From: Candidatus Omnitrophota bacterium | GTDB lineage: Bacteria; Omnitrophota; Omnitrophia; Omnitrophales; Aquincolibacteriaceae | Assembly: GCA_043821445.1 (NCBI GenBank) | Contig: JBDRCT010000031.1 | Location: 35,620-99,619, forward strand | Length of the DNA: 64,000 bases | Direction: 5' to 3' | Shown here: positions 8,878 to 38,420 of the stretch, piece after piece | How positions within the stretch are numbered: the stretch's first letter is position 1 | Layout of the letters: every line of letters starts with the position of its first letter | Translations under genes and position numbers: made by a program | Notes under the pieces: generated by a model | The model's input: the letters and a program-made list of their open reading frames with translations, nothing else | What the model was told of the DNA's origin: nothing | Database searches by the model: none

Positions 8878-8996
8878 AAGGTTAATGGGACTAGTCCCGG
8901 CAACCGTTGATAAAAAGAAAATAGAGGCCAGGGCATGTGATGGAACTTTATGTGAACGTGGGTTGTCTTACAAGACAGGAAAGGGAGGGTGTCAAA

Positions 8997-10158: not shown

Positions 10159-10316
10159 GTCGGATTTCCCGTCTTTCTGACGCCCGGTGTCAGATTTTGC
10201 GCCGAGCGTCAAAAAAATATTGAATATAATGCCCGCTTTCTATGCGACACATTTTTTGCTACCATATCCGCTTTATAGGGACTTTATCTCCAAGACAGAA
10301 AAGGGAGGGTGTTAAA
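10159..10316 (+). promoter_or_regulatory. Repeated intergenic unit, copy 2
   Basis: Same palindrome (GACGCCCGGTGTCAG...GCGTCAAAAAAA) and TGAATATAATG -10-like box as copy 1. Confidence 0.5.
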
Positions 10317-21400: not shown

Positions 21401-24400
21401 TAATTTATGCCGTGGACGGAACGGAAAAAAGAGAGACCTACGCTTTACAGGAGGGCGTAAATCTTCTTACGATCGAAGAGTCCAGCGCTGCCGGTAAAGT
21501 AATCGCACATTATCTGGTGGTGCTCAATGTAATTGCCGATCCTGTCTTTCCGGCGAATGAGACCGAACTCATTTTCAACCTGAACGGAACCGACGCCGCG
21601 CTTGTCGATCCAAACTTCGATGCTTCAGGATTGATCCAGGCGGGATGGATCAAATCCAAGGATAGGACTGCTTATCGGCTTTCCGGGGGACTGCTTGCGG
21701 AAGAATTCCGGTCCGATGGTACGCATATTTATTATGATTTCTTAGGACGCATTCATTCAAAAATAGACAAAAACAAAAAGATTACCAGCTATCAGTATAA
21801 GATCAATGCTACAGGCAACTTGTTAAGCGCTCATATTGAAGAAGGAAATAATCGGGTTGATCTGGATAGTAACGGTTTAATCCTCTTCTGGAAAAAAGGG
21901 GACGGAACAGAATTTTTCTTCGATTCCGGTCATTTGACCAAAATCAAAAAGGACGTGGTCGAATACCTCTATCAGCTCCGGCAAGTGGGCAGCGAATGGA
22001 TCTCGGAATCGATCGATCCTCTGCCTTTGGACTCTCCTTATCCTGCGTCGCTTCATTACACATCCGATTCGGTACTTTCCCGAACGGTGATGCCGGACGG
22101 GACCATTTATCAATATGATCTTTCGGGCGCGGTGACGCGCGTGGTGGATCCTGCCGGCAAAGAAACTCTTTATGATCCTGAGAAGGATCTGTTTGGCGCG
22201 TTCCATAGCTTTTCAGTGACCCGTGATGGTATTACAAGAATTTACGGCGAGCAAGGCAAGCTGACTCAATTGAAGGATGCGGACGGGACTGTTTTTACGA
22301 TCGATCAAGATAAGGTCGTAATGATCCAAAAACAGGAGGGCGCCTTATACCGGGACTTGGTTTATGACACGACTGGAACTCTTCAAAATGCCTTGGTGAA
22401 ACTGCCGGACGGAAGAGAACTTCTCATCGTCGGTCAGCAACTCACACAGATCAGGACGGTCGACGGAACGATCCTTGAAATCCAAAATGATAAACCGGCC
22501 AGGTCTTTGACCACAAACGGTCGCGTCTATCAGTACCGTGAGTCGACGGATGCAAACGGCAATCCCATTTTTATCGGTGACTTAACGGAATTTATCAACG
22601 ACAAAGGAAACCACATCTTTGTCGCAAACGGCCGGGTGAGCGGCATGGAAGAAACCCGTGGCAGTGTGTTGATCAAGACAGGATTTGCATACGATAACGC
22701 GGGAAGGATCGTCGAGGCCACGATCGATCAAGACGGTGTCCGGACCGCACGGTTCGTCTATGACTACCAAACTAGCGGAACCATTGTCACGAACAATGTG
22801 GGATCGATTCGTTATTACGACTCGTCCGGGACGCTCATGAAACTGATCACGCTCCGTGGGGAGGAGTACACGTTCAGCCAGATCACAGATCCAAGCGGAG
22901 CCGCCGGGTTCCTTCAAACCTTGATAAAAGTAGTCAACCAACTCGAAGGGACGATCGATTATGAGAACGGAAAACCGGTCCGGATCGTACGGCCGGACTC
23001 GATTGAAATGAAGGATATCGTTCTGAATCCCGACGATTCGCTTCTCAGCGCCGTTTTAATCTATCCCAGCGGGGCGGAAGGTCTTATCGAAGCGGGTGAA
23101 TTGAAACAGATCATCGAAACGGACGGCACGAAGAAAGAATATACGGCCGGTCTTCTTCGGAAGATCACTCGCCCCACTTTTGAAGCAACGAACTTCAGTT
23201 ATGCTTTTGATGTTTCGGGCAATCTCACTTCCGTCATCGTTCAGGACGGTTTAGGCTCCAGGACTTATACGACAGCAGGGATTCTGAGTTCTGCGGTCAA
23301 TCCGAGCGACGATATTTTTACCTATGATGCTTTGGGAAATTTGATCAAGGTCAAAACGAGCGCCAATGAAGAATTCAATTATTCAGGCCAGAATTTATCT
23401 TCCATCAAGTTTTCCACGGGGGAAATGCTGACCGGCATTGTTTTGAATGCGAACGGCAACCTTTCGGGAGGCACGTACGATCCCAAAGACGGTTCAATCT
23501 GGACGATCGCGGGCGGCGCGATAAGTCAGATCCGGGACGCAAGCGGGAATAATCTTTATTATTCAGGAGGGCGTGTCACTCAGATTGTTAAAATGAATGG
23601 CGACCGGATTACCTACAATACCTCCGGCCAGATCACTCAGATCACCTGGGCGGACGGTTCCTGCGCCCGTCAAATTACCACCAATTCTCAGGATGCATTG
23701 GTCAACGCGATCATTTATTCGCCCTCATTTGATAGCGCGGTGTTAAGCACTACGCTTTCCGGGATCGGGTCCATGGAAAGACCGCTGGTGAACGGAGTCC
23801 TTCAAACCCCCGGGTCGCAGGTCAGGACCGCGGGTAAGTTTTTTGACTTCAACGGGCTCTACTGGCGTGAAGTTAATTCGACCGCGTTACACGGAACGAC
23901 TCAGAATTACATCCGGGTCAAAATGACGGGTTCGAATTTCACGGTGAGTTTCTACGCCACGAATTACACGAACTCTCTTTTTAGTCAGCAAACCTATCAG
24001 TCCGCGGCAGGGTCTCCGTATGTCTACATCCCGCTTCCCGATCTTTCCGTAAAATATCTTTACGCGATCGAGATTTCCCCCAAAGGGAATGCCACGGTAG
24101 ATATCACGGACACTCCACTCGTTTTTTCGAGCGGGGACTATCAGCCCGTTGCATGGGTGAATACGGCCACCGCCTTTATAAATCAAAAAATAGTGCCGGG
24201 TTTTCCGGAAAGGATCACTGCGGCATTGTCCCAGAAAACGGCCTTGGAAAGCGCCTCTCAAGATTTTTCCGCTGCCGAAACCTTTAGTACGGTCAAAGTC
24301 AGCGATAGCCAATTCCAAATAGAAAGTCTCAAGAACGCGGTACTGCAAGCGCGACTGTCGCCGGATGCTGTTATCTCGGCCACTTATAACAGAGACACGA

Positions 24401-27400
24401 ACCTTCTTTTTACGGCCCACAGTGATCCTGCTTTTGATCCTGCGGCGGACGCAAACGGAGAATGGAAAAACTCGGTGTCCGGCTGGGAAGAGGATGGATT
24501 TGATTTTGCACCCGTCGTCACCGCGCCTTCCGGGGATGTGCCGCTTAAGATCGAATATGCCTCGAATGGCGGAAGCCAGACGGTGTCTTTTCAAAACGCA
24601 TCTCGGGCCATCTATCAAAACGATCGCATCGAGACCCTTATTACCCCGGAAGGGAAGACGGTTCATTACTCCTATGCCGCTGGGTCCAGTGATGTCGACC
24701 GGGTGATCTTCGACCCCGATCAAATCGACCCAGAAACGACCGAAGTGAAATACGAGTATGGAAAAATACGAGAGATTAGAAAAGCAGGGGCACTTGTCTA
24801 TCTTTACTCCTATGAATTTGACGATTTAGGGGACGAGATCACCGTGATCGAAGATACTGTAGAAAATCAGATCCGCCGGTTTTTGAAAGGAAAACTTATC
24901 TCGATAAGCAATTTAAATAGCGGCTTTAAGACGGTTTATGATTACGACGGCTCAGGCCGGATCGCGAAAGCAGTCACCTCCCGTTCGGGCCGCATCTTCG
25001 GCGCATTCGCTTATGCTTACTCCGGCGACGATACCCTGATCACCGAGGAAGCGACGGGTATTTCAAGGCGTTACGGCGCGGACGGGTTCCTGAAAGAATT
25101 GATCACGGCCAAAGATGAATTTTATAAATATTCCGTTCTTTCGGACGGACAAGCCGAGGACCTTCTGCTTCAGGAGCTCGTGAAGATCGTTACTTCCCGC
25201 GGCACGATCGAGTACAGCAGAGAAAAACCTGTTGAGATCACCGCCGCGGACGGTACCGTGATCAAAAACCTCATCGTCGAATCTTTCGTGGATGAAAATC
25301 ACATGACCCGCATGGTGATCCAACGAGCCGAAGTGCATTTGCCCGCTCCGGACGGAAGGATCGCCTTGATCGAAAAAGGGAAGGTGTTTTATATAAGCTC
25401 TCCGGGCGGAGAGATCCAGGAATTTGAGAATGGATTTTTGGAAAGACTGGTTAATGCCCAGGGTGAGATCACGGACCTCATTTACACGCGGAACGCCTCC
25501 GGGGAGATCGAATCGATCGGTGTAGAGGACAAGAACGGACTGAGGATTTATGACAGGAATGGACAATTGATTCGCGCGGTTCTGCCGGATACCACGCAGA
25601 TCGATTATGACGCGAGCGGCCAGTTGCTCCGGCTCCAGACTCCGGGCGGAGAAATATGGGGATATTCAGCGGGCAGTCTAAGTTCGATGACCTTGGCGGG
25701 GGGTGGCGGAAAAATCGAGCAGATTGTCTTAGATGCGTCAGGAAACGTGCAGTCCTGTGTTTACACTAAAGACGGCATCGTCACCACCATTCAAAACGGC
25801 GCCGTTGCCAGCAAAAAAACGTTGGATGGCACTCTTTTCATCTATGGCTCTTCCGGGAAAGTAGTTGAGATCCTGAAACCGGCGGGCGCGGGTTATGACC
25901 GGCTGATCTATGATGCGAACGGAGTCTTGACTTCCGTTGAACGCGCGGACGGTTCCCGTGCGCGTCAGATCACGGCCGATGCACAGGACACCTTGATCAA
26001 CGCGATCATTTACTCGCCCTTATTTGACGGTGCCGTGTTAAACGCAACGCTTCCCGGAATCGGGTCCAAGGAAAGACCTCTGGTGAACGGGGTCCTTCAA
26101 ACTCCCGGGTCGCAGGTCGGGACCGCCAACGAATTTTTTGACTTCAACGGGCTTTACTGGCGCAGTGTTAATTCAACCTCGTTGCACGGCGCGAATCAAA
26201 ATTATCTCCGGATCAAGATGATGGGTTCGAATTTTACGGTGAGTTTCTACTCCACCAATTACACGAACTCCCTCTTCAGTCAGCAAACTTATCAGTTTGT
26301 GGTCGAATCTCCGTATGTCTACATCCCGCTTTCCGATCTTTCCGTAAAATATCTTTATGCGATCGAGATTTCCCCCAAAGGGAATGTCGCGATGGATATC
26401 ACGGATACTCCGCTTGTTTTTTCGAGTGGGGATATGCCCGCTATGGATTGGACGGGGATCGCGAGCGGTTTTACGGATCAAAAAGACAGACCCGCAGTGC
26501 CGTCGATCATTAACGAGACTCTTTTTAAAAAAGCAGCTTTTGAGACCCAGGCCGCGGATCAATTCTTACTTCGGTCGCCGGACCAGCTTGATGAAGGCCA
26601 AGCTCAGACGTTCTACGATTCTGCTCTCGGCATCGTGAAGGGCGCGTTGCTTGAACCCGAAACGATCATTGCGGCGGCTTACCGGGCCTCTGACAGCACA
26701 CTCTTGATGGCTGCCCGTGCCAATAACACCGTGGCGCACTACGTCAACGGGCAGATCGACTATGTCACGGATCTGGACGGGAATTTGCTTATCGACCACG
26801 AGTATGACGCCGCTGGGGACCTGGTCGCGGTTCATCTCATGGATGCGAAGAAAAAATTAGAGGAGCAGATCATCGCTGCTCAGACGGAGGTCTCACGTCA
26901 GGAAACTGAGGCGCTGATGGCGCTTGCCGTTGAGCGCGGGCACGCGATCGAGGCGATCCAAAACAAATTGAATGAGGGCCTGGCTGCGATCAATGCCGAG
27001 CGGGAAAGGATCCGGCAGCTCAGTTCTCAGCGGGTCTGCCGCACAGTCCTGTTCTTTAAATCTTGCGAGAACGTTCAAGTCGATGTGAGCGCACCCCTTT
27101 CGGAACTCGATCAGATGGAGAAGGACCTTCGCGAAGAAACGGCCGTGGCGCTTGCCGGACTTGATGCCGTTGTGGCCCAGAAGAAAACAGAGATAGAAAC
27201 GGATGCCAAGGCGGCGTTTGTCGAATTAGAGAAGCAGCAGCTCACCACCTACCGCGAGATCCTGAAACAGGAATTAAGACCCGTTCTTTTCCATCACTAC
27301 CGGAAGATTCTCGGAAGAGATCCGTCCGAAGGCGAGATCGATACGTGGCTTAAGCGCGAGATCGGAGACGACCATGTGAGCCTCCTCTCATTTAAAGAGG

Positions 27401-30400
27401 CGGTCTCAGCCCGCGGGCTGAATTTTGCGGGGGCTTGGGTGGATCTTGACCAGTTGAAAGTCTTGTCAGGCTTGTCTCAAACCGGTGTTTTAGCCTCTCT
27501 CAAGGATGTCGGTTTTGTGATGGTGACGGACGTGAGCGGCGGGAATGTGACTTTTGTCCAACGGAGTCTCGGCAACCGGACCCAGGAACTGAAGATCGAG
27601 CTCGTGCCGTGGCTCGATGCGAACGGGGTGCCGATCCTGGATACCGGAGGGAATATCATTTGCGTCGAAAAATATGTCTTCGTTTCCAAGAATGACGGCT
27701 TCGGCGGCGAAGAAGTGACGGTGAGCGAGGACGAGTTCTTAAGCCGTTGGCTTAAAGAGAACAGCCTTAAGGGAGCGGTGTTCACCGATCAGCCGCTTGG
27801 GACGGGTTCCGTTCTTATGACGGACGAGGAGGCAAAGGCCATCTCCGGATTATCTTCCTGGGATATCCTTGTGGAATATTTCAAATCGGCGTTCGGGATC
27901 GATCCGGAGCGGGCCAACGTTCCGAAACTTATCAGAGAATTGAGCAGTAGTGAAGAATACAGTGTTCGTTTGGCGCAAGTGAACGCGATCAAAGCAGCGG
28001 TCCGGGATTTTCTGGACTTGTATCTCGCGTCGGACGAAGCGGGACGTTCCGCCAAGATCCAGTCTTTGGGCCTGGTCCCGGAAGAGGTCATTTCTATTAC
28101 ATCCCCGGAAATAGAAACGATCCTGGCCTGGCTCGATTCCCGCGACCTCCACTTCGGTCATTCCGCCTTTTTTGCGATCCAGCATTTGATCGAAGAAAAC
28201 AATGTTCAGGCGTCGCTTTTTGATATCGCCCGCGAAGCAATTCTAATCGATATCATGACGGGCGTGATCCATCCGCTCACGACCGGGGACCTGGAACTTT
28301 CCCTTTTTGCTCTCAACCGGGTTGCCAAAAACCGCGGCGTGCTCTTGACTCCCGCCAAAGTCACTTTCGAGGAACTCAAGCGCGAAGTCGTTCAAGGCAA
28401 GGGCGTTCTGGTTCATATGAACGGCAACCATTACGTCGTGGTGACCCAAATAGCACTCGCGGCCCGGACGGACGAAAATGGCGACCCTGTGCTGGATGAG
28501 CAAGGCGCTCCTGTCATGATCGAGGTCGTGACCTATATCGAAAAGAATGTGGGGCCGTCGGGCGAGGCGCAAACGCTCGCGCGGTCAGAATTTGAAAAGA
28601 TATGGATGGTGACCGCGGAGGGCGAGGGGATCGTGCTGACGCCGGCGGAAGTTTCGAACAACGCCACAATCATGACGGACCGGGAGACCCAGCAGATCAC
28701 GGGCGCGTTCTTCGGTTTTATCTTCGGGATCCTGAAGAAGATCTTTGATACCGTGATCCAGGTGGTGAAAGCTGTTTTTGAGGCTGTAAAGACGGTTTTG
28801 CGTTATGTCGTCGATCTTGTGGTCGATGTGGTCCGGGCTCTCACGGATTTCGTGTTGGAGCTCGGTAAAAGTCTCGTCTCGCTCGGGCAGTTCTTCTTTG
28901 AGGCCGTTCGTTTTGTCGGGGCCATTTTGAGCGGAGATCTGAACGGAGGGTTCCAGTCGCTCCAGCGGGCGCTCGGTCATTTCGGGAATTTCCTGTTCTT
29001 CGCCGCGGCGGTGGGTGGGTTCCTTGTGCCGGGGCTGGCCCCGCTTCAAGTGATCGGCTTCCAGGTCTTGAGCGTTGCCCTGAGCAAAGGGACCGGCGTC
29101 GTTCTGGATAAGATCGGGATCAAAAGCCCGGTAATCAAAAACCTGATCGGTAGTTTTATTACGGGCGGGGTCTTTGGCTTTGCCGGCGGTCAGATCGGAT
29201 CGGGGACCACGTTTTTAAACTCCGCATTGGCCAATCTTGCCATGTCGGGCGTCAATGAGCTTGCCCTGCATATCGGCCTTTCTCCTCCGATCGCGGCGAA
29301 CCTGGGTATTCTTGCGAGTATTATCACCGGCTCCGTGGAAGGCGGCGCAAGCCTCCCGGAAGCTTTCAAGACCGTCGCCCCGGACCTGATAAAAGAACTG
29401 ACCCTTTCCGGTGTATGGGCCCTCGGAACCTCCCTTGGCATCGACCCTCGTCTGACCTCGCTCATATCCCTGCCACTTGGAGCCGGTATCGGCGTTGGTT
29501 TTGACAGTTTACTTCACGCAAGCACGATCAATTTCGCCAGTCTTACGGCCGCTATCAAAAACGGTCTCGCCGCCGGTGCAAAATCGATCGGTTTCGATTT
29601 CGGGGGCGCGACAAGTCATCCGATTTTCGGTTCGCTTCTGAGTGGAAATATTTTAAGTTCTATCGGAAGCGCCATGGGGGACGGCAGCCTCTTCAGCGGC
29701 ATTCTGGATATTCTCAAAACGGCGGTCCTTATCCCGTTCAACGCCGCGAATGACATGGTCCAAATGACGCTTCAGGGGGTACGCAATTTTGATTCCTTGA
29801 TCCAGGAAAAAGGTCTTGCCGGAGCGCTGGAATCCCTGCTTACGTCCATATTCAGCCGCCAGACAATAGAAAAATTGTTAGGTTCCGGAGGCATTGGAGG
29901 ATTCGTCGGTTCTGTGGCAAAGATCCCCGCCACGCTCAACGGCCAAAGCGTTCTGGAACAGAAGTTCGACGGCACGACCTCTCTTTTTTATGACCTTGCG
30001 GGCAATTTTATCGGCAAAAAAGAGAATGGCGTCACGCAACTCGGCGCCTTTGGCTTCGATGTTGCCGGCAAATGGGCCCTTCTGGCCGGCCAGGTATTCG
30101 CGCCGCTTGCCGGTGGCTTGGCCTTTGCCGGAGAAGTGGCGGATGGTCAGCTCCGTAATGGAAAGGTCTATGATCCGAATGGCATTTTAGTCGGTACCCT
30201 GGATCCGGAAAAGGATGGCGAATTCATAGAAATCGACGGTCGCGATCCTCAAAATCCGGATTCCAATTCTTCCGGCAAATTCTGGTCCGGTATTTTTAAT
30301 CTTGCCACATTGGGACTGCAGTTCTTCTTCCAGGATGGAGTTTTGCGGAAGATCGAGTCCTCGGTTTCCAGCAACGCCGATGTGTCCAATTTGTTTAAAA

Positions 30401-31368
30401 GTAAATTTCTTTTTGGCAACGGGTTTAATAGCACAATGGTTCCCGAAGGAACACTAGATACGTTAATTCCGGCCTATAGCAACAACCTATTATTAGATGG
30501 TGTGATCAATTTAATGCAAACGTTAATGGTTTCCTTATACGAAACAACAGAGCTATTCGGAAATATGGGAGAGTGGGCGAGCGACTTCATCTACAGAATG
30601 GACGACAAGGATTTCTTTCAAAGCCTGCTTTCGGGGACCTTTACCGGAGTTCTCCCTGCTCTTTTTATGAACTGGCTCTTTCCCAATAATTTGGTCACGG
30701 AGGTTAGAAATAAACTCTTGGCCCTTGAAGATAGTCAGGGTTGTCTCGAAAAGGGGATCGCGTTCGCTCATTCAGGGTTTTTTGCCCCTCTTCTTGGCGT
30801 TTTAAGTGACACGCGTCCAGATGGCTCAAAATTTGATGTTCAGACTCTCATCAACTATGAAGGTCCTTATGTGGATTACAACGCATACATTGACAATCCT
30901 TATTTGAAACGTATTATCAACGTTTGGGGAACAGCTCCAACAATTTTCCCACCCCTAACAGGGCAGTGGACAGGGAATTACGTCATAGATCCTCGTTCGG
31001 GTGATTTGGTTCGAGAATTGGATCCAACGAAAAAGGATGTGCAGATCAGTGATTTTGGTCCACCGTTTATTGCTCCTGCGAATTTCACGGGGCTGGCGGA
31101 TATTGAGAATATCAATATCGAGATCATTGGAGCCCGGCACAATGACTTTGCGTATGATCCAATCGCTTGGAATATGGATCGCTATCTCCCTGAAGAACGT
31201 GCGAGAAAGATCAATCTCCTGACGAATCAATTTATGCGACAATTATATGGCGCCGTGGCACAAGATCAAGCCGAACCGGGTAAGTTGCTCTTATTCTTGC
31301 GAAACCATCCAAATGCCGAGCAAGACACCGTGACTGGGATTTGGCAAATTGATTTTGGCATAGCATGA
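18439..31368 (+). CDS. Giant secreted YD/RHS-repeat-like polymorphic-toxin-type protein (4309 aa)
   Basis: Uninterrupted 12.9 kb ORF. RBS GGAGA. Signal peptide. Ig-like repeat region (aa ~450-1000). Dozens of YDxxG(R/N)L YD-like repeats. Coiled coil. DUF4214-like YRKILGRDPSEGEIDTWL. C39-like GNHYVVV segment. A ~480-aa Gly-rich hydrophobic region. The last ~100 aa are homologous to the orphan cassette at 32396..32716. Stop overlaps the next gene's ATG (ATGA). Confidence 0.9.
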   Translation: MKRSFSFPLRWVAFCIAMIFGWNQIVWAGEILPRDYIVPSEQPATTTSVSVPVVSTGAMPVQMLTTTDFLANKRGPLSPATKDTSEIIPKAVASPNTARYEYERYDFQDTLDLLRPEFASAVIVKEITAEDLKKLSELSFETGVIVLHGEIVLFTSGSEDEIGMLSAVKMLADQATFISHTHPSIYSAGGPSGGDINEAVAAPGEEYVITHTGVYAYNNEGILNNGDSHGYDWYLEKLKEAVGASKAEQDQIEARKDLNEFVTAQDAYNRAKEDERETFRMGGTLSYASGLKTSNITTLSGSPYPYITTGSSAGTALSYASSTSQFNLSYNVPGASDVSGFTISFDNASTPTMETQNISILTNLVFGLKGPATSIKLEIVDINNAKDTFTLTGISNKTERFWRVPVSAILNTIDKTRITQLNFIMTQANTTSSRRTGVISIRSKGLKTTAPSQPAVTSTVPAATNQTTLLLSGTKEANSAIFINGTQVVARDTSTTWTSTVNLTTEGNNTFNITAKNSIGLVSTAKTVTIQRDTVVPTGSININSGAAYTASVAVTLDLSSTDSGSGISTMSFSMDNVTWTTPETYADSKAFTLPIGDGDKTVYVKYYDKAGNVSAVFSKHIQLRATGPVVVIATGTPSLIKVKTLTINYTVDGVVKEKTFTDLAEGENMLTITEQDEAGNETSVNWAVTLDTIPPAVVVTNAVPSLTNQAALVVDYTADGVVKQKTFTLAEGDNAGLTIREEDAAGNVRMITLSNIVLDTVAPVIVVTSAVPSLTNQAALVVDYTVDGVVKQKTFTLAEGDNAGLTITEEDTAGNAQTITLANVVLDTVAPVIVVTSAVPSLTNQAALVVDYTVDGVVKQKTFMLAEGDNTGLTITEEDAATNSRTVTLSKVMLDTVPPAIMIDPATPHLISVNTFTVSYTVDGVSKLKTFASLVEGENALTVTETDLAGNRTTLTHSVTYTPLTAIAFPVLELRSPQIVTTPNYELIYAVDGTEKRETYALQEGVNLLTIEESSAAGKVIAHYLVVLNVIADPVFPANETELIFNLNGTDAALVDPNFDASGLIQAGWIKSKDRTAYRLSGGLLAEEFRSDGTHIYYDFLGRIHSKIDKNKKITSYQYKINATGNLLSAHIEEGNNRVDLDSNGLILFWKKGDGTEFFFDSGHLTKIKKDVVEYLYQLRQVGSEWISESIDPLPLDSPYPASLHYTSDSVLSRTVMPDGTIYQYDLSGAVTRVVDPAGKETLYDPEKDLFGAFHSFSVTRDGITRIYGEQGKLTQLKDADGTVFTIDQDKVVMIQKQEGALYRDLVYDTTGTLQNALVKLPDGRELLIVGQQLTQIRTVDGTILEIQNDKPARSLTTNGRVYQYRESTDANGNPIFIGDLTEFINDKGNHIFVANGRVSGMEETRGSVLIKTGFAYDNAGRIVEATIDQDGVRTARFVYDYQTSGTIVTNNVGSIRYYDSSGTLMKLITLRGEEYTFSQITDPSGAAGFLQTLIKVVNQLEGTIDYENGKPVRIVRPDSIEMKDIVLNPDDSLLSAVLIYPSGAEGLIEAGELKQIIETDGTKKEYTAGLLRKITRPTFEATNFSYAFDVSGNLTSVIVQDGLGSRTYTTAGILSSAVNPSDDIFTYDALGNLIKVKTSANEEFNYSGQNLSSIKFSTGEMLTGIVLNANGNLSGGTYDPKDGSIWTIAGGAISQIRDASGNNLYYSGGRVTQIVKMNGDRITYNTSGQITQITWADGSCARQITTNSQDALVNAIIYSPSFDSAVLSTTLSGIGSMERPLVNGVLQTPGSQVRTAGKFFDFNGLYWREVNSTALHGTTQNYIRVKMTGSNFTVSFYATNYTNSLFSQQTYQSAAGSPYVYIPLPDLSVKYLYAIEISPKGNATVDITDTPLVFSSGDYQPVAWVNTATAFINQKIVPGFPERITAALSQKTALESASQDFSAAETFSTVKVSDSQFQIESLKNAVLQARLSPDAVISATYNRDTNLLFTAHSDPAFDPAADANGEWKNSVSGWEEDGFDFAPVVTAPSGDVPLKIEYASNGGSQTVSFQNASRAIYQNDRIETLITPEGKTVHYSYAAGSSDVDRVIFDPDQIDPETTEVKYEYGKIREIRKAGALVYLYSYEFDDLGDEITVIEDTVENQIRRFLKGKLISISNLNSGFKTVYDYDGSGRIAKAVTSRSGRIFGAFAYAYSGDDTLITEEATGISRRYGADGFLKELITAKDEFYKYSVLSDGQAEDLLLQELVKIVTSRGTIEYSREKPVEITAADGTVIKNLIVESFVDENHMTRMVIQRAEVHLPAPDGRIALIEKGKVFYISSPGGEIQEFENGFLERLVNAQGEITDLIYTRNASGEIESIGVEDKNGLRIYDRNGQLIRAVLPDTTQIDYDASGQLLRLQTPGGEIWGYSAGSLSSMTLAGGGGKIEQIVLDASGNVQSCVYTKDGIVTTIQNGAVASKKTLDGTLFIYGSSGKVVEILKPAGAGYDRLIYDANGVLTSVERADGSRARQITADAQDTLINAIIYSPLFDGAVLNATLPGIGSKERPLVNGVLQTPGSQVGTANEFFDFNGLYWRSVNSTSLHGANQNYLRIKMMGSNFTVSFYSTNYTNSLFSQQTYQFVVESPYVYIPLSDLSVKYLYAIEISPKGNVAMDITDTPLVFSSGDMPAMDWTGIASGFTDQKDRPAVPSIINETLFKKAAFETQAADQFLLRSPDQLDEGQAQTFYDSALGIVKGALLEPETIIAAAYRASDSTLLMAARANNTVAHYVNGQIDYVTDLDGNLLIDHEYDAAGDLVAVHLMDAKKKLEEQIIAAQTEVSRQETEALMALAVERGHAIEAIQNKLNEGLAAINAERERIRQLSSQRVCRTVLFFKSCENVQVDVSAPLSELDQMEKDLREETAVALAGLDAVVAQKKTEIETDAKAAFVELEKQQLTTYREILKQELRPVLFHHYRKILGRDPSEGEIDTWLKREIGDDHVSLLSFKEAVSARGLNFAGAWVDLDQLKVLSGLSQTGVLASLKDVGFVMVTDVSGGNVTFVQRSLGNRTQELKIELVPWLDANGVPILDTGGNIICVEKYVFVSKNDGFGGEEVTVSEDEFLSRWLKENSLKGAVFTDQPLGTGSVLMTDEEAKAISGLSSWDILVEYFKSAFGIDPERANVPKLIRELSSSEEYSVRLAQVNAIKAAVRDFLDLYLASDEAGRSAKIQSLGLVPEEVISITSPEIETILAWLDSRDLHFGHSAFFAIQHLIEENNVQASLFDIAREAILIDIMTGVIHPLTTGDLELSLFALNRVAKNRGVLLTPAKVTFEELKREVVQGKGVLVHMNGNHYVVVTQIALAARTDENGDPVLDEQGAPVMIEVVTYIEKNVGPSGEAQTLARSEFEKIWMVTAEGEGIVLTPAEVSNNATIMTDRETQQITGAFFGFIFGILKKIFDTVIQVVKAVFEAVKTVLRYVVDLVVDVVRALTDFVLELGKSLVSLGQFFFEAVRFVGAILSGDLNGGFQSLQRALGHFGNFLFFAAAVGGFLVPGLAPLQVIGFQVLSVALSKGTGVVLDKIGIKSPVIKNLIGSFITGGVFGFAGGQIGSGTTFLNSALANLAMSGVNELALHIGLSPPIAANLGILASIITGSVEGGASLPEAFKTVAPDLIKELTLSGVWALGTSLGIDPRLTSLISLPLGAGIGVGFDSLLHASTINFASLTAAIKNGLAAGAKSIGFDFGGATSHPIFGSLLSGNILSSIGSAMGDGSLFSGILDILKTAVLIPFNAANDMVQMTLQGVRNFDSLIQEKGLAGALESLLTSIFSRQTIEKLLGSGGIGGFVGSVAKIPATLNGQSVLEQKFDGTTSLFYDLAGNFIGKKENGVTQLGAFGFDVAGKWALLAGQVFAPLAGGLAFAGEVADGQLRNGKVYDPNGILVGTLDPEKDGEFIEIDGRDPQNPDSNSSGKFWSGIFNLATLGLQFFFQDGVLRKIESSVSSNADVSNLFKSKFLFGNGFNSTMVPEGTLDTLIPAYSNNLLLDGVINLMQTLMVSLYETTELFGNMGEWASDFIYRMDDKDFFQSLLSGTFTGVLPALFMNWLFPNNLVTEVRNKLLALEDSQGCLEKGIAFAHSGFFAPLLGVLSDTRPDGSKFDVQTLINYEGPYVDYNAYIDNPYLKRIINVWGTAPTIFPPLTGQWTGNYVIDPRSGDLVRELDPTKKDVQISDFGPPFIAPANFTGLADIENINIEIIGARHNDFAYDPIAWNMDRYLPEERARKINLLTNQFMRQLYGAVAQDQAEPGKLLLFLRNHPNAEQDTVTGIWQIDFGIA
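20519..21150 (+). repeat. Tandem 210-nt (70-aa) near-identical coding repeats within the giant gene
   Basis: Three almost identical copies (VAPVIVVTSAVPSLTNQAALVVDYTVDGVVKQKTFTLAEGDNAGLTITEED...) plus more divergent flanking copies from ~20320 to ~21540. Confidence 0.85.
23641..24140 (+). repeat. Internal ~500-nt segmental duplication in the giant gene (copy 1)
   Basis: ITWADGSCARQITTNSQDALVNAIIYSP...SVKYLYAIEISPKGN...PLVFSSGD is repeated at 25936..26435 (about 80% nt identity). Confidence 0.85.
25936..26435 (+). repeat. Internal ~500-nt segmental duplication in the giant gene (copy 2)
   Basis: VERADGSRARQITADAQDTLINAIIYSP...SVKYLYAIEISPKGN...PLVFSSGD. Confidence 0.85.
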
Positions 31369-31874
31369 AAAAAACATTTATTGTTTCCATGATTTTAATA
31401 GTCTTGGGGCTTACTGTCGCAATGCTATTTTTTCAAAAAGAAAATTCAGGATCGAGCGTTCAACCCATAGGTGAAAAAGGGATTTCTGTAGGAAGTCGAA
31501 GCGGAGCGTTTATTTCTATGGACGCAAAGCAAAAACCGCATCCTGAAACTCTAAAAGAGGTAGAGGACTATAAACGTGATATTAAAGCAATTGATGATGC
31601 GTGGGCCAATATTAGGACTGGGAGTTCTTACTTTAAGAATGGTGACTATGCAAAGGCCGCAGAAGCATATGAAAAGGCTTATGTAATCGGCGGTGGGATA
31701 AAGCATGTGAGTGGTTTTGATTTAGCTGACGTATATGAAAAGCTTGGTCGTTATGATGATGCCGTAACAGTTTTGGACAATATGATTAAAAATCGAGAAA
31801 CGAATGAGTATGGTATTCAGAAAGCCAGCGAAATTCGCACCTGCCTCCTTGCCGCTAAAGCCAAACAGCAATAG
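31365..31874 (+). CDS. Candidate immunity protein (TM + TPR-like, 169 aa) coupled to the giant gene
   Basis: ATG overlaps the giant-gene stop (gcATGAaa). N-terminal TM helix. TPR-like YFKNGDYAKAAEAYEKAY. Conserved tail FDLADVYEKLGRYDDA..NEYGIQKA..IR. Paralog at 32716. Confidence 0.6.
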   Translation: MKKTFIVSMILIVLGLTVAMLFFQKENSGSSVQPIGEKGISVGSRSGAFISMDAKQKPHPETLKEVEDYKRDIKAIDDAWANIRTGSSYFKNGDYAKAAEAYEKAYVIGGGIKHVSGFDLADVYEKLGRYDDAVTVLDNMIKNRETNEYGIQKASEIRTCLLAAKAKQQ

Positions 31875-31925
31875 ACTTAAAGTTTAGAACTTTTCTTCCA
31901 GAAATTTCCTCTACGGAAACCGGAC

Positions 31926-31988
31926 ATCCGGTTCCGGGAATCGCTCAAGGAAACCGCGGTTGAGGCGGGCATCACGATCCCATGGTAA
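31926..31988 (+). pseudogene. Displaced 3'-end fragment of the 36238..37164 gene family
   Basis: CCGGTTCCGGGAATCGCTCAAGGAAACCGCGGTTGAGGCGGGCATCACGATCCCATGGTAA is near-identical to 37105..37164 (...RFRESLKETAVEAGLTIPW*). No upstream gene body. Confidence 0.7.
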
Positions 31989-32236
31989 TCCCTATGAATC
32001 CATTATGGCTGGCTGGCATAGCGGTCTTGGTTTTGAATCTTCCCTTCGGATTTTGGCGCGTCCACGTCCGGAAATTTTCACCCTCCTGGTTCCTGGCGGT
32101 CCATCTTCCCGTCCCGTTCGTGATCGCGATCCGCTTCCTCATGCGGCTTGGCTTTCATCCCGTCACGTATCCGGTCCTTGTGGGCGCGTTTTTTACGGGG
32201 CAATTCCTTGGCGGTAAGATCGCAAAATCGAAGTAG
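31982..32236 (+). CDS. Small hydrophobic membrane protein (84 aa)
   Basis: Two to three predicted TM helices. Lies between the two displaced gene-end fragments. ATG at 31982 or 31994. Confidence 0.4.
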   Translation: MVIPMNPLWLAGIAVLVLNLPFGFWRVHVRKFSPSWFLAVHLPVPFVIAIRFLMRLGFHPVTYPVLVGAFFTGQFLGGKIAKSK

Positions 32237-32238
32237 GG

Positions 32239-32390
32239 ATCCCGCAGTTATGTCTGTCCCCCCAAAAGGGACTGCCACAGGTTCTTGTCGGTGCCGGTGG
32301 GGACGAGCGTCGGACCTTGGAGGAACAGGATCTCCTGGCTTCCCGGCGGCGTGGCCGCGGTGCACCGAATGACGGGAACGCTTACGGAGA
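32239..32390 (-). pseudogene. Displaced 3'-end fragment of the 37188..38420 (-) gene family
   Basis: About 85% nt identity to 37188..37335. Encodes the conserved C-terminal tail ...SVPVIRC(T/I)A(A/S)TPPGSQEILFLQGP(T/M)LVP(T/A)GTD(K/Q)N(L/M)WQS(L/P)LGGQT. Homology ends abruptly at ~32390. Confidence 0.7.
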
Positions 32391-32719
32391 ATGGAGATTT
32401 TGGTCCGCCGACCTGGACTTTTGATGATGCTAACTTTACAGGCCCAGCAGGAATTGAAAATATTAATATCGAGATCATTGGGGCCAGACATAATGATTTT
32501 TCCTATGATCCTGCCGCTTGGAATTCGAATCCCTATGAACCGGAAGCAGAAGCGCAGGAAATTAATCGGAAAACGAATTTATTTATGAGAGATTTATACA
32601 AATTTGCTCTTCAGGATCAAACCAATGCGGGTGTTTTATCGAATTTTCCGAGAACCGAATCTGTCGTGAGTTATAACTCATCTAGAAATATTTGGGTCGT
32701 AGATTTTGGTGATGTATGA
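32285..32719 (+). CDS. Orphan toxin C-terminal-domain cassette (homolog of the giant protein C-terminus)
   Basis: From ~32396 (DFGPPTWTFDDANFTGPAGIENINIEIIGARHNDFSYDPAAWN...) it is about 50% identical to giant aa ~4195-4309. The upstream part of the ORF (32285..32395) is antisense to the displaced fragment, so an independent start is doubtful. Stop overlaps the next ATG (ATGA). Confidence 0.55.
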   Translation: MSVPVGTSVGPWRNRISWLPGGVAAVHRMTGTLTENGDFGPPTWTFDDANFTGPAGIENINIEIIGARHNDFSYDPAAWNSNPYEPEAEAQEINRKTNLFMRDLYKFALQDQTNAGVLSNFPRTESVVSYNSSRNIWVVDFGDV

Positions 32720-33225
32720 AAAATAGAACGCTTTTCATTCTGGGCTTTATTTTTACTATTCTGATGCTCGTTATTTTCTTATTTCGGCAAACGAATACAT
32801 TCCAATCTAAGCTTGAAATCTGGCCGATGGGAGACGGTAAGGGGATTTTCGTTGGAGAAAGTAAATCCCGATATATGGAACGTAATTCCCAAGGCCAATC
32901 TGAAGAGATAAGGAAAAGAATAGAGCAACATGAGGTTGATGTCGGTGCCATTGAGGAAGCACATCGATACAGGATGCAGGCCTATGGTTTTATTAAAAAT
33001 GGCCAGTTGAAGGAGGCTGCCGTAGCGTTTGAGAAAGCATATGCGGCAAAAAGGCATGCTGTCACAGTTTTTGATTTAGCTGACGTATATGAAAAGCTCG
33101 GTCGTTATGATGACGCTATCACTATTTTAGATAATATGGTTCTAAGTAAAGAAACCAATGAATACGGGATCCAAAAAGCCGTTGAAATTCGTGCCCGTCT
33201 CCTAGCTGCCAAAGCCAAACCGTAA
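32716..33225 (+). CDS. Candidate immunity protein paralog (169 aa) of 31365..31874
   Basis: Same length, N-terminal TM helix and conserved tail (VFDLADVYEKLGRYDDAITILDNMV..ETNEYGIQKAVEIRARLLAAKAK). ATGA coupling to the orphan toxin domain. Confidence 0.6.
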   Translation: MKNRTLFILGFIFTILMLVIFLFRQTNTFQSKLEIWPMGDGKGIFVGESKSRYMERNSQGQSEEIRKRIEQHEVDVGAIEEAHRYRMQAYGFIKNGQLKEAAVAFEKAYAAKRHAVTVFDLADVYEKLGRYDDAITILDNMVLSKETNEYGIQKAVEIRARLLAAKAKP

Positions 33226-33432
33226 AAAAACGGCATCGTTCTATTTTGATCCAATCAGAGGGACAAATTTTGAAAGCATATTGAAAAAAAGGGGTCACAC
33301 CTGGGGCGGAGGCGTTACTGTGGGTGTCAGGCAGGCTTATATTTCCCGGCTAGAGTCAGGAGAGGTCAAGCCAACGCAGGAGCAGATAGAGGTTATTCAG
33401 ACGTTTCTTGATTAGCAACGGAGTGCCAGACG

Positions 33433-33543
33433 ATGAGATATAAAAAATTATCCGATCTGCAACGGGACATTGAAACGTTTGACGGAAAATGGGAGCTGTC
33501 GCCTTGCGTGGTATACTTACCTCAGAAAAAAGATCAGCAATGA
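33433..33543 (+). pseudogene. Truncated 5' fragment of a 36238-family paralog
   Basis: 33356..33505 is about 85% identical to 36160..36310. MRYKKLSDLQRDIETFDGKWELSP matches MRCRKLADLQKDIETFDGKWELSP, then diverges and stops after 36 codons. Confidence 0.65.
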
Positions 33544-33550
33544 GGTGCTT

Positions 33551-34096
33551 ATGACAGCCGTTAACATAGAAAAAGAGATCGAGAAGCATTTTTTCCCGGA
33601 CCCGATTCCTTCCTATGGCCCCCCTAAATTCATTATTTTTACGGGATGTGTCGGATCGGGAAAAACGACCGAGCGGCGGAAGCATTTCTCCCAAAGCTAT
33701 GTCACGGTCGATGCCGGCGAGATCTTCTGCTCGCTGACGAAAGGCGGTCACGGCGCTTTCGGCAAAGACTATTTTTATGAAATGAACACCATCGGCTTCA
33801 GGGTCCTGGAGCGCGCCGTCACGGAAAAACGGAATATTGTCATGGAGATCGTAGGCGCGGAGCCTGAGATACTGAAGGGCTTCGACGACATTATTTCGAG
33901 CTTCGGATATAAAGTTGATTTTCAGGCTGTGAATTGTGAACCCGCAGAAGCGTATGAACGCCACGTGAATGCCGGCATCAATGATCCCTCGTATATTTCC
34001 GCCCATCATACCGAACCTTATCATCAGAAATGGGTTGCTGACCTGTGGGATAAAATGACAGGTCAAAAAGAAGATGATGCGCGGCAAAACAACTGA
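33551..34096 (+). CDS. P-loop NTPase, zeta-toxin/AAA_33-like kinase
   Basis: Walker A motif FTGCVGSGKTT and Walker B-like NIVMEIVGAE. Size and layout fit small zeta-toxin-type kinases. ATG at 33551 (MTAVNIEKE). Confidence 0.5.
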   Translation: MTAVNIEKEIEKHFFPDPIPSYGPPKFIIFTGCVGSGKTTERRKHFSQSYVTVDAGEIFCSLTKGGHGAFGKDYFYEMNTIGFRVLERAVTEKRNIVMEIVGAEPEILKGFDDIISSFGYKVDFQAVNCEPAEAYERHVNAGINDPSYISAHHTEPYHQKWVADLWDKMTGQKEDDARQNN

Positions 34097-34232: not shown

Positions 34233-34802
34233 GTGCAAGCTATAATCGCCATCATGAGAAGGTTTTTCCTTGCTCTTGCGATATTCTTTTTATTTCCTAC
34301 CCTCGTGTTTTCTGCTGATCCTATCAGTACGTCTCATGTCTATTTCTCTCCGAAGGGTGGCTGCACCAAAGCCATGACGGATGCCATAGGACAAGCCAAG
34401 CAACCGGTCTTGGTTCAGGCATACTCTTTTACTTCATACCCCATAGCTCAGGCTCTCATTGAGGCCGGGAAGAGAGGCGTTAAGGTCGAAGCCATTGTTG
34501 ATGGGAAACAGATCCATGAGAAGAAAACAAAGTGAGGGTTGGTGGCCAAGGGGGGAGTGATCACTTATCTGGACCATGCTCATTCGACCGCCCATAACAA
34601 GGTGATGATGATTGATGGCAAGACCATTATGACTGGCTCTTTCAACTTTACAAATGCTGCTCAAGAACGTAATGCGGAGGATGTGTTGATTTTGGATGCT
34701 CCGGCTTTGGCGACTGAATATACGAAAAACTGGAAAATACATCAAAAGCGCTCAGAACTTTATAAGATTGAGAACAGGCGGAGTTGTGGGGATGAGCATT
34801 AA
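34233..34802 (+). pseudogene. Phospholipase D-family (Nuc-like) nuclease interrupted by an in-frame TGA
   Basis: Signal peptide. Nuc-like N-terminus (VLVQAYSFTSYPIAQALIEAGKRGVKV). In-frame TGA at 34533..34535. Same frame continues with the HKD motif HNKVMMIDGKTIMTGSFNFTNAAQERN. Confidence 0.6.
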
Positions 34803-35214
34803 AGCGGGGGCTTTCATTGGCGGCTTGACCGGGGTCGTCATGATTTCGGCGGTAACATTTAGTCCTATGGGACATGGAGAGGAACCTGTCAGGGAATATT
34901 ATGCAAATGGAAAGCTAAAATCAGAACAGTCCTTCAAAGATGGAAAGCTTGAGGGAATCTTTAAGGTATATTACGACAACGGACAATTAAGAAAAGTGGG
35001 ATCTTACAAGAACGGGAAGCGAAATGGGCCGTTTAAGACGTATTATGAAAACGGGCAAGTAGTTTTAGATGAATTTTACATGAATGGAAAACAAGAGAGG
35101 TCGTTTAAGACATATTATAAAAATGGGCAATTAAGGAGCTATTCGCTCTACAAGGATGGAAAACGAGTGGGAGCGGTTAAGGAGTATGACAAAGACGGAA
35201 AGTTAAGGCCGTGA
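34792..35214 (+). CDS. TM-anchored MORN-variant (YwqK-like) repeat protein
   Basis: MSIKAGAFIGGLTGVVMISAV TM helix. Six repeats of YYxNGxLxxxxSYKxGKxxG type. Confidence 0.6.
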   Translation: MSIKAGAFIGGLTGVVMISAVTFSPMGHGEEPVREYYANGKLKSEQSFKDGKLEGIFKVYYDNGQLRKVGSYKNGKRNGPFKTYYENGQVVLDEFYMNGKQERSFKTYYKNGQLRSYSLYKDGKRVGAVKEYDKDGKLRP

Positions 35215-35237
35215 GAACGTAGGAGGGGGTTGTGGGG

Positions 35238-36125
35238 ATGAAAAAATGTCCTTTTTGTGGGGAGGAAGTAAAAGAGGAGCCTCCGGTTTGTCGCCTCTGT
35301 CACTTTGATTTAAAGACGGGCAAGATCGTGAATTTTATAGACCCCATAGTAAAGAGCGCACCTTTTCCCAAGCCAGTTAAAAAAAGAAAAAGAAAAAGAA
35401 AAGATGTTAGGGTGGGCATTAAGATAGGATTTGGTATATTTGTATTGCTTCCATTGGGATTATTATCTTCGTGGTTTTTGTTTACCTTCCAGTCAGCTCC
35501 TCAAGAGTTGAATTCGCAATATCAAATATTTCTCGTTGCCGCTTCGAAGGTCATTAGCCTATTGACCGGCCTAGTGCCCTTTTGGATTGCTAAAAACAAA
35601 GGGCGTACGAGACTCGCAAAATCCTCATTCTGGATTTGTGTGGCCTTAGCACTTACGGGTGGAGCTGTTTTTGCTTGGCCCGGAGCTGCTATTTTGACCG
35701 TGATTGCACTGGCTGCTAAAAAACCCAAAAAAACCAAGGGCCGGTTGCTGGGAAAGACGATGGCGAGAGAGGCATTGATTTTTTTGGGGGTAATGTTTGT
35801 TATCTTTATCTATATGTTTGTCATTGAAGAGTTTGTTTTAAACGGTATGGATACAAAGATTCTGAGGATCGAAAACGAGTATTCTTTGAGGCATTTTTAT
35901 TCCTATGAAACTTCAAAATATATTATTAGTCCACGTGATATAGACACTGATTTAAATGGAACCCCAGGTGCCAAACCTCCTGATTTTGTCAATGAACTGC
36001 AGTTTCTTTTGTCTTCGCGACGCTTTTTAGAAGACGATGTCGGAAAGTTATTGTTTTTTTCCTATCTACTTTATCTTTTAGTCCGCGTTGTCATCCGGGC
36101 AATTAAAAAATCGAGGACAAAATGA
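35238..36125 (+). CDS. Zinc-ribbon multi-pass membrane protein
   Basis: MKKCPFCGEE...CRLCHFDL ribbon. KKRKRKRK stretch. About 5 TM helices. Confidence 0.55.
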   Translation: MKKCPFCGEEVKEEPPVCRLCHFDLKTGKIVNFIDPIVKSAPFPKPVKKRKRKRKDVRVGIKIGFGIFVLLPLGLLSSWFLFTFQSAPQELNSQYQIFLVAASKVISLLTGLVPFWIAKNKGRTRLAKSSFWICVALALTGGAVFAWPGAAILTVIALAAKKPKKTKGRLLGKTMAREALIFLGVMFVIFIYMFVIEEFVLNGMDTKILRIENEYSLRHFYSYETSKYIISPRDIDTDLNGTPGAKPPDFVNELQFLLSSRRFLEDDVGKLLFFSYLLYLLVRVVIRAIKKSRTK

Positions 36126-36237
36126 CCGGATCCCTAGCCTCTTACTTTGCTTGTCTTGGGCTGGGAGAGATTAAGCCCACGCAGGAGCAGATTGAGGTTA
36201 TTCAGACGTTTCTTGACTAGCGACGGAGTGCCAGACC

Positions 36238-37164
36238 ATGAGATGCCGAAAACTAGCTGATCTCCAGAAGGACATAGAAACATTCGACGGTAAGTGGGAG
36301 CTGTCGCCCACGCATGAGCTTACGTATAAGGAGCGCGGTGGGGACAAAGAAGCGACGATTAAAGGACTGCTTGTAGCGGTGGAGCCGGATGCGCTGGTGA
36401 TCTCGGTCACGATGAAAGAAGACGAGAAGCGTACCGTGACCGGGCTCGTGAAGCTGTCGGGCAAATGGGAGCTTGACGAAAAGAACCGCATTACCTTCTC
36501 TGTGAAGCGCGGCCTCGACCGCTACGGCAAGCTTACGTTTCAGGGCTCCTGGGAGATCAATGATAATTTTCAGGTGACCTATTCTTTTTCCACACAACAA
36601 GTTCTCGAGGGTTCGGGGAAGAAACGCCGGCGTGTAACACGCACGACGCAGAAACTTATTTTCGAAGGCCGTTGGGATTTTTCAGAGAAAAATTGCCTAA
36701 CCTATCTGATCGGAGTGGACTCCGGATCTTCGTTTCGGTTCCGGGGAACATTTGAGACGCACAGCATTCTCGCGAAGAAAGGGGAGATCCGCTACCAGGT
36801 TGGCGTGGAGTATAAAACTTCCCGGGGTGCGAAAAAATGGTTGACGCAGACGATCACTCTTTTCGGGAAGTGGAAACTTTCGGACGACCTCGCGCTTTCT
36901 TTCGAGCTCGAACGCGCAGACGGCCGCAGGTCCGAGATTCGCGTTGGTGCCGACCTTTCCTTGAAAAAACTCCAAGGGCCGGGGCTCCGGCGTCTGCTAT
37001 CCGACGAGGTTTCAGTGGATCTTAAAAACCGTGAAGGCGATCCTCTCGGCATCGAACTCGTTCTCACCAAGGACCTCTTCGACGGCAATGCCCAAACTTT
37101 TGTCCGGTTCCGGGAATCGCTCAAGGAAACCGCGGTCGAGGCCGGCCTAACGATCCCGTGGTAG
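36238..37164 (+). CDS. Beta-repeat protein (five GKWEL-type ~55-aa repeats), function unknown
   Basis: Internal repeats GKWELSPTHELTY / GKWELDEKNRITF / GSWEINDNFQVTY / GRWDFSEKNCLTY / GKWKLSDDLALSF. No signal peptide. 5' and 3' fragments of paralogs occur at 33433 and 31926. Confidence 0.6.
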   Translation: MRCRKLADLQKDIETFDGKWELSPTHELTYKERGGDKEATIKGLLVAVEPDALVISVTMKEDEKRTVTGLVKLSGKWELDEKNRITFSVKRGLDRYGKLTFQGSWEINDNFQVTYSFSTQQVLEGSGKKRRRVTRTTQKLIFEGRWDFSEKNCLTYLIGVDSGSSFRFRGTFETHSILAKKGEIRYQVGVEYKTSRGAKKWLTQTITLFGKWKLSDDLALSFELERADGRRSEIRVGADLSLKKLQGPGLRRLLSDEVSVDLKNREGDPLGIELVLTKDLFDGNAQTFVRFRESLKETAVEAGLTIPW

Positions 37165-37187
37165 TATTAAAAAAGGGAATCTTGCCG

Positions 37188-38420
37188 TTATGTCTGTCCC
37201 CCCAAAGGGGACTGCCACATGTTTTGGTCGGTGCCGGCGGGGACGAGCATCGGGCCTTGCAGGAACAGGATCTCCTGGCTCCCCGGCGGCGGCGTGGCCG
37301 AGATGCACCGGATGACGGGAACGCTCACGGGGGCGCTTGAATTGCCGGCCAAGTCTTCCGCAAGGACGGTAAAATGATTATCCCCTCTGACGAGGCCTAC
37401 CAGAACCGACCAGGTCACGGAACTATCGTTTGTGACAAGCGGCGTGTACGAGAGGCCGCCATCGGAGGAGATCCAGATGCTTGCTCCGGGAGCCTTGCTT
37501 CCGCTTAAGGTGACGGTACGAGTGGTCACGGTCGCGAGCGGTGGTGTCACCAGGGGGGCGGTCATCATATAAGTGATCGGGGGAATGGTCACCACGGCGC
37601 TTGGATGGCCGGCCCTGTCCTGAGCGAGAATCGTGAAATGATTGGTACCGCTGACCAGTTTCACCGGAGCGGACCACGTCGTGGCGGTAGTTTTTGGCAC
37701 AAGCTGTGTGTAGAACCGGCCCCCGTTGGATGAGATCCGGATGCTTTCTTCGGCCGCTTTCGTTCCGTTTAACACGATCCATGGATGGTTCGACACGGTC
37801 CCGGGCGGCGTCACCGTGGGAGCGGGCACCGTATAACTGTAGGTAATGGTCGGGACGATCACTTCGGCGCTTGGATTTAAAGTCTCATCTGCCGCGACGA
37901 TCCTGAAATCATTGGTTCCGTCAACAAGGTCCACCGAAGCGGACCAGGGGGTCTCTGTGCTCTCCGCCACAAACAGCGTGTACGACCTGCCGCCGTTTGA
38001 GGAGATCCAGAGGCTCTGCCCCGGGGCCTTGGTCCCGCCGAGTGTGAGCGTGCTCATGCTGACGGTCCCGGGCGGCGGCGCGACATCAGGGGGAGGCACG
38101 AACTCCGGTGTTTCGGGAGCCTTCAGGGTTTGCGTTTCTGCACCGGCTGAAGGAGCGGAGAGCGCGCCGGTGGCCAAAAAGTCAAGGATCGCGGGAGGGA
38201 TCCGTATCGCGGGAGGTACAGGGGCCGTTTCCGCTACGGAGTTTTTTTGCGCCAGGGTGTCCGTCTGAGGCTGGTCCCATCCGGCCTGGATGCCGGTCTC
38301 AGGCTGCGTCGTCACCGCGAAGCCCGGCAGAACGGCCTGTGAGAGAACAAAAGAGAGGGCGGCGGTCAGTAGGAGGCTCTTCTTTGCGACGAGTACTTTC
38401 TTAAACCGGTCATGGATCAA
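37188..38420 (-). CDS. Secreted protein with three Ig-like ~90-aa repeats
   Basis: Signal peptide. Three tandem repeats (PGTVS..L.GTKA.G.S..ISSNGGR.YT..V......WSA.V.LV.GTN.F.I.A.D..) resemble the giant-protein N-terminal Ig-like domains. Its C-terminal tail is duplicated at 32239..32390. Confidence 0.65.
   Translation of the reverse strand: MIHDRFKKVLVAKKSLLLTAALSFVLSQAVLPGFAVTTQPETGIQAGWDQPQTDTLAQKNSVAETAPVPPAIRIPPAILDFLATGALSAPSAGAETQTLKAPETPEFVPPPDVAPPPGTVSMSTLTLGGTKAPGQSLWISSNGGRSYTLFVAESTETPWSASVDLVDGTNDFRIVAADETLNPSAEVIVPTITYSYTVPAPTVTPPGTVSNHPWIVLNGTKAAEESIRISSNGGRFYTQLVPKTTATTWSAPVKLVSGTNHFTILAQDRAGHPSAVVTIPPITYMMTAPLVTPPLATVTTRTVTLSGSKAPGASIWISSDGGLSYTPLVTNDSSVTWSVLVGLVRGDNHFTVLAEDLAGNSSAPVSVPVIRCISATPPPGSQEILFLQGPMLVPAGTDQNMWQSPLGGQT

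Follow-up and report, generated by a model that had tools for sequence, protein, structure and literature searches.

A gene at positions 34254 to 34802 of the window (the whole 64,000-nucleotide stretch of Candidatus Omnitrophota DNA analysed here) is, as judged from its sequence, a pseudogene of the Nuc-like phospholipase D (PLD) nuclease family and not a functional member of it. A single in-frame TGA interrupts this otherwise 182-codon, Nuc-like, single-HKD gene, which runs from ATG 34254 to TAA 34802, and the gene is very probably a genuine nonsense pseudogene that derives from a secreted endonuclease (periplasmic or extracellular). The pseudogene is unremarkable, and its family is already known. 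The gene is laid out as follows.

34254..34532, + strand: N-terminal 93 codons of the nuclease pseudogene, which cover the first half of the PLD fold behind a predicted Sec signal peptide
34254-34313, + strand: predicted Sec signal peptide MRRFFLALAIFFLFPTLVFS, judged by eye from the sequence
34533..34535, + strand: premature in-frame TGA, where the aligned homologue column is aliphatic
34536..34802, + strand: C-terminal segment, probably untranslated, 88 codons plus TAA
34593-34646, + strand: HxK(x)4D(x)6GSxN motif (H114-N-K116-VMMI-D121-GKTIMT-G128-S129-F-N131), 3′ of the TGA

One frame spans 34233-34802, reading VLVQAYSFTSYPIAQALIEAGKRGVKV, then ...IHEKKTK, the TGA at 34533-34535, GLVAKGGVITYLD..., HNKVMMIDGKTIMTGSFNFT and finally TAA at 34800-34802. 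The likely start of the gene is ATG 34254 (MRRFF..., MRRFFLALAIFFLFPTLVFSADP...) and not GTG 34233, since homologues begin with M-R/K-R/K. When the stop was masked, the product matched both Pfam PLDc_2 (PF13091; E=2.3e-24, 86.2 bits versus a cut-off of 27, residues 42-159) and the solved Nuc endonuclease 1byr (E=1.5e-21, residues 28-166); both matches run across the stop, and both are far beyond chance. The catalytic-motif residues downstream of the TGA are all kept (H114, K116, D121, G128, S129 and N131, plus E142), and the 88 codons that follow the TGA contain no second stop or frameshift in the nuclease frame. A first-pass annotation of this DNA had described a signal peptide part and an HKD part lying in one frame with one TGA between them, a reading with which the sequence of 34233-34802 agrees; its assignment of the gene to the Nuc-like PLD nucleases, with a signal peptide and a C-terminal HKD motif, is borne out by the PLDc_2 and 1byr matches and by the homologue alignment. 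What sets the window gene apart from its family is the frame itself: where members have an uninterrupted frame for one polypeptide of ~150-185 aa, codon 94 here is TGA.

A search of the protein collection returned 338 relatives at E<=1e-10, the best 120 of which are listed. Among these 120, 108 are 160-200 aa in length and four (104-131 aa) lack the N-terminus, while the listed full-length homologues are ~170-185 aa and are unbroken at the interrupted column when aligned. The closest of the listed relatives share 66-78% identity with the window gene. The first-pass annotation had proposed a comparison with orthologs, and at the interrupted column the 120 homologues (of 338) carry Ala (53), Leu (49), Ile (17) or Val (1), with Cys, Trp or Gly in 0 and none interrupted there. 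An alignment of 35 homologues has Leu or Ile in the same column, and the DNA of seven close relatives has CTG, CTT or TTG at the TGA position, with TGA in 0/7. The N-terminal segment is collinear with intact homologues, at 77-94% identity across 66 mature-region columns. The in-frame stop sits inside this homology to intact, full-length relatives, and a nonsense pseudogene, the option that had been listed first in the earlier annotation, is the best fit to that arrangement. In a scan of GTDB species representatives, relatives of the nuclease were found spread over many phyla.

Of the solved structures, the best match is Nuc from the Salmonella plasmid pKM101 (1byr/1bys), which resembles the window nuclease in its size (~155-180 aa), single HKD motif and N-terminal signal peptide. 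The equivalents of Nuc H94, K96, S109, N111 and E122 (numbering from the 1byr alignment), to which Stuckey and Dixon (1999) reportedly assign catalytic roles, are kept in the window copy. Unlike Nuc, however, the window copy is broken by TGA before the HKD motif and has Q where Nuc has E117 and D where Nuc has N123, and, whereas Nuc resides on a conjugative plasmid, the window copy is chromosomal, lying in the part of an Omnitrophota MAG that is occupied by RHS cassettes. NucT of Helicobacter pylori (6ehi; NCBIfam PRK13912 models) likewise has just one PLD domain and is a secreted nuclease, although the match is weak (6ehi, E=1.2e-7). The NCBIfam NucT, DrmC and ClsB models all scored below cut-off on the nuclease; with 52.9 bits for NucT model NF010490, far under the equivalog cut-off of 211, a NucT orthologue is ruled out. 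Zucchini/mitoPLD (4ggj and 4gel, E about 1e-9) belong to the same single-HKD nuclease fold class, but they are eukaryotic, membrane-anchored enzymes of the piRNA pathway and only distant relatives. PLDc_2 proteins P0001-P0025, from Omnitrophota, Planctomycetota, Verrucomicrobiota and Desulfobacterota MAGs, have the same architecture of signal peptide plus HKD motif at 66-78% full-length identity. They differ from the window gene in being unbroken at the TGA column, and none has the window residue at E137, N143 or H166. P0001 also has in common with the window nuclease a downstream MORN gene.

Upstream and downstream of the TGA, the gene has drifted from its family to different extents. At columns that are >=90% conserved in the 120 homologues, the window deviates at 0/31 upstream and at 5/33 downstream of the TGA, the five being I112T, E137Q, N143D, L144V and H166R (columns 96-100% conserved). 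The E137, N143 and H166 columns are 100% invariant, with Q137, D143 and R166 occurring in 0/120 homologues. In a 36-sequence alignment, there were 1/38 deviations upstream versus 9/44 downstream (Fisher p=0.017), and mean identity to the clade was 0.835 for the N half, within the range of the homologues, and 0.713 for the C half, lower than for any other clade member. In a codon alignment of seven genes, the C half of the window gene shows 9 amino-acid changes that no other sequence has, versus 0-3 such changes in each of six close homologues; singletons at codon positions 1+2 numbered 11 versus 1-3 in the six homologues, and third-position singletons 2 versus 0-4. C-half dN was 0.12-0.155 for pairs involving the window and 0.04-0.10 among the homologues, with dS saturated. 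Statistically, the asymmetry in constraint between the two halves is borderline (p=0.017 to 0.056).

The normal stop of the gene has also been lost. After ...YKI, the window has GAG, whereas the nuclease of locus L002, which is paired with a MORN gene as in the window (MORN gene at L002 1449-1910), ends with TAG after ...YRI. The spacer to the MORN gene is 16 nt shorter in the window than in L002, and the frame continues for 10 further codons, reaching into the MORN start. This 10-residue C-terminal extension serves as supporting evidence of decay and no more: P0002 also has a C-terminal extension, though one unrelated to the window's by DNA alignment, and the window differs from the syntenic L002 by TAG to GAG. 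Between the window and L002, its closest relative, the MORN proteins are 50% identical versus 76% for the nucleases. The MORN_2 protein may be a fast-evolving partner of the nuclease, perhaps an immunity or binding protein.

The pseudogene and its MORN gene lie among the following features.

18439-31368: RHS-repeat protein, 4309 aa
31365-31874: TPR gene
32285-32719: orphan copy of the RHS C-terminus
32716-33225: second TPR gene
33470-34096: zeta-toxin-like P-loop kinase
34792..35214, + strand: intact MORN_2-repeat gene (Pfam MORN_2 E=8.8e-24), with a start that overlaps the pseudogene's extended 3′ end
35232-36125: membrane protein

The toxin-like cassettes that had been noted beside the nuclease are indeed present, in the form of the RHS protein, the TPR genes and the zeta-toxin-like kinase. 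From 18439 to 33225, an RHS gene plus TPR gene and an orphan RHS C-terminus plus TPR gene make up a classic polymorphic toxin layout with an orphan toxin/immunity cassette. The region is rich in direct repeats and gene remnants, and a scan for promoters and terminators around the nuclease gene found nothing above shuffle expectation. Within the RHS/TPR block, 31070-31247 resembles 32421-32598 (70%), and 31706-31871 resembles 33060-33225 (78%). The zeta-like kinase, nuclease pseudogene, MORN gene and membrane protein together occupy a 2.8-kb block flanked by another pair of direct repeats, 33336-33503 and 36141-36308 (168 nt, 80%). Within each 168-nt repeat, an XRE-HTH-like ORF is left as a 3′ remnant (...KPTQEQIEVIQTFLD) and a 308-aa gene is represented by its 5′ end (MRxxKLxDLQxDIETFDGKWELSP), which suggests that the 2.8-kb block was inserted or duplicated by recombination. 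Further out, 31927-31987 is repeated at 37103-37163 (92%) and 32236-32387 at 37176-37330 (about 90%). Since these repeats are second copies of the 3′ ends of two convergent genes, 36238-37164 and 37188-38420, a cassette region of ~5 kb is flanked by near-identical remnants.

Two other features of the window were observed away from this region. A second giant ORF on the + strand, from about 56990 to 64000, is at least 2353 codons in length and runs past the window end; its start resembles a signal peptide, and its sequence includes long Ala-rich repeats ((AADQ)n, AEEAARIAAQQ). Three tandem ORFs on the + strand, encoding 184-211 aa (8937-9491, 9550-10158 and 10242-10877), have a shared ending, ...CTAGGTCGGA, and are probably tandem paralogues.

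Relatives of the nuclease adjoin a phage-type integrase (L087), an rve transposase (L003), AbiE genes and HEPN_AbiU2. On an Omnitrophota MAG contig (L003/L004 1-1903), a 5′-truncated nuclease of 104 aa, P0106, lies ~290 nt 3′ of the rve-family transposase gene and is another decayed copy of the family. Because relatives adjoin integrases, a transposase and Abi genes, and because one copy is 5′-truncated, the family is by these signs accessory, mobile and often gained and lost. A different kind of rearrangement occurs on a related metagenome contig (L094 1483-2184), where the N half of a P0005-like nuclease is fused in frame, after ...KTKLG, to the C-terminus of an unrelated membrane protein. 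At the junction lies an 8-nt microhomology, AAGCTTGG, that is repeated 153 nt downstream, and the fusion may reflect a deletion, an assembly chimera or coincidence.

A sequence of events can be proposed for the window gene. A Leu codon would have become TGA, a step requiring one T-to-G change if the ancestral codon was, as supposed, TTA. Against such a one-step origin, TTA occurs in 0 of the sampled homologues, and CTG, CTT or TTG would need two or three changes. Translation would now end after residue 93, before the HKD motif. In the Nuc structure of Stuckey and Dixon (1999), the active site is reportedly built from the HKD halves of two monomers. No active nuclease would be expected from the window gene, since its 93-residue precursor lacks the HKD motif and the Nuc active site needs the HKD halves. 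The untranslated 3′ half would then, presumably in this order, have drifted after the stop arose, gaining replacements at invariant columns and losing the normal stop. Because the downstream half shows an excess of such replacements together with the lost stop, the inactivation was probably not very recent, and the first-pass description of a "recent" nonsense pseudogene is doubtful on the same evidence. As an accessory and horizontally mobile gene in a rearranged RHS toxin/immunity region, the nuclease would have been lost through ordinary gene decay.

Two further observations count against the pseudogene. The first is that the upstream half is unrelaxed, unlike what would be expected for simple decay of the whole gene; the second is that all downstream catalytic residues are kept, with no further stop or frameshift. 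The lack of relaxed constraint upstream may be due to chance, to mosaic ancestry or to residual constraint on a translated fragment, chance being among these because the tests of asymmetry are borderline.

The alternative that survives best, although it is unlikely, is a sequencing or assembly error, in which case 34533-34535 would be a sense codon in the cells, the gene there would be intact, and one or more consensus bases would be wrong. The TGA does rest on one consensus sequence from a single assembly, and neither the metagenome nor the genome collections yielded a copy from the same species: an exact 30-mer with the codon at the TGA left free had 0 matches among metagenome contigs, the best match in a protein-guided scan of metagenome contigs for the same species was 74% identical, and the best among GTDB species representatives was a 5′-truncated copy at 79% identity. 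An error would also agree with the catalytic motif and reading frame being intact downstream of the TGA. Substitution errors are rare in consensus assemblies. Per-base accuracy in the window looks high, since the two giant ORFs (4326 codons and at least 2353 codons) run without a break and the long ORFs that form an operon-like series at 41-50 kb are intact. Moreover, an error would leave unexplained both the lost terminal stop and the confinement of invariant-column replacements to the downstream half.

The protein records of the same MAG were also considered. MFH1800117, MFH1800120 and MFH1800124 are neighbouring proteins, and the three accession numbers between the latter two correspond to the three intact genes that lie between, with no slot for the nuclease. 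Five candidate fragment proteins of the nuclease locus had no exact match in the protein collection, and the annotators appear to have called no protein at this locus. Real inactivation is favoured over a consensus error because of the downstream replacements, the lost stop, the unbroken giant ORFs and the missing protein record, and we infer that the stop is present in cells and not just in the assembly.

A very unlikely alternative is that the truncated product (93 residues, ~73 after cleavage of the signal peptide) is retained as still useful or still constrained and only the C half is decaying, or that the halves were brought together by recombination and have different histories. The gap in mean identity between the N half and the C half would be in keeping with either version. 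So would the nearest relatives, which differ by half (P0002 and P0004 are closest in the N half, P0001 in the C half), and the L094 copy, which leaves the nuclease frame within a codon of the TGA site. The statistics behind the asymmetry are borderline, however, pairs of homologues likewise show mosaic identity, so that it is not specific to the window, and L094 may be an assembly chimera at its microhomology. Sliding-window identity showed a mosaic profile without a clean break and no sharp recombination breakpoint at the TGA, and the window holds no nuclease paralogue that could have served as a converter of the N half. We know of no activity for half a PLD fold without the HKD motif.

Finally, it is extremely unlikely that the UGA undergoes programmed recoding, being read as selenocysteine, by near-cognate readthrough or under an alternative code to yield the full-length nuclease, perhaps at a low, safe level. 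The frame that stays open for 88 codons past the stop with its catalytic residues kept, and an upstream half as conserved as in functional homologues, would be in keeping with recoding. Nevertheless, TGA is the commonest terminator among the long ORFs of the window, ending 32/72 ORFs of >=150 codons, including the 4326-codon RHS ORF and several with ATGA overlaps. This matches the first-pass view that TGA is a genuine stop elsewhere and an alternative code unlikely, and codes 4 (Trp) and 25 (Gly) are rejected on this count and on a homologue column that is never W or G. Selenocysteine and readthrough had also been considered unlikely, and a search for a SECIS-like hairpin had been proposed. 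None was found downstream: the 68 nt from the UGA have an MFE of -14.5 kcal/mol versus -19.9 +/- 2.8 for shuffles (z=+1.9), and 198/200 shuffles fold at least as well. Rfam gave no match to the UGA region with the threshold relaxed to E<=10, no Rfam family attains its gathering score in the whole window, and no tRNA gene occurs within the 64 kb. Selenocysteine is rejected on the lack of a SECIS hairpin 3′ of the UGA, of an Rfam match and of a window tRNA, and on a homologue column without Cys. The sense codons found at this position in all seven close-relative genes also count against recoding, and E137Q, N143D and H166R, at columns invariant in 120/120 homologues, argue against selection on the downstream protein. 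Recoding through selenocysteine or codes 4 and 25 is therefore rejected, because TGA is a normal stop here, the column is aliphatic, and neither a fold nor an Rfam match was found.

The chance that the allele is still alive, either through traces of a potentially self-harmful secreted nuclease made by low-level UGA readthrough or through an N-terminal fragment with a function of its own, is slim indeed. Were it alive, the L094 breakpoint would be a hint that mid-gene breaks recur at one site in the nuclease family. Were the stop read through, the gene would provide a small example of how expression of a hazardous secreted nuclease can be controlled, though nothing here points that way. With the nonsense pseudogene as the preferred reading, the locus should be annotated as a Nuc-like PLD nuclease pseudogene, and neither as two small genes nor as a recoding event. 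It would represent one more case of accessory-gene decay in the variable, recombination-scarred region 3′ of an Omnitrophota RHS toxin gene.
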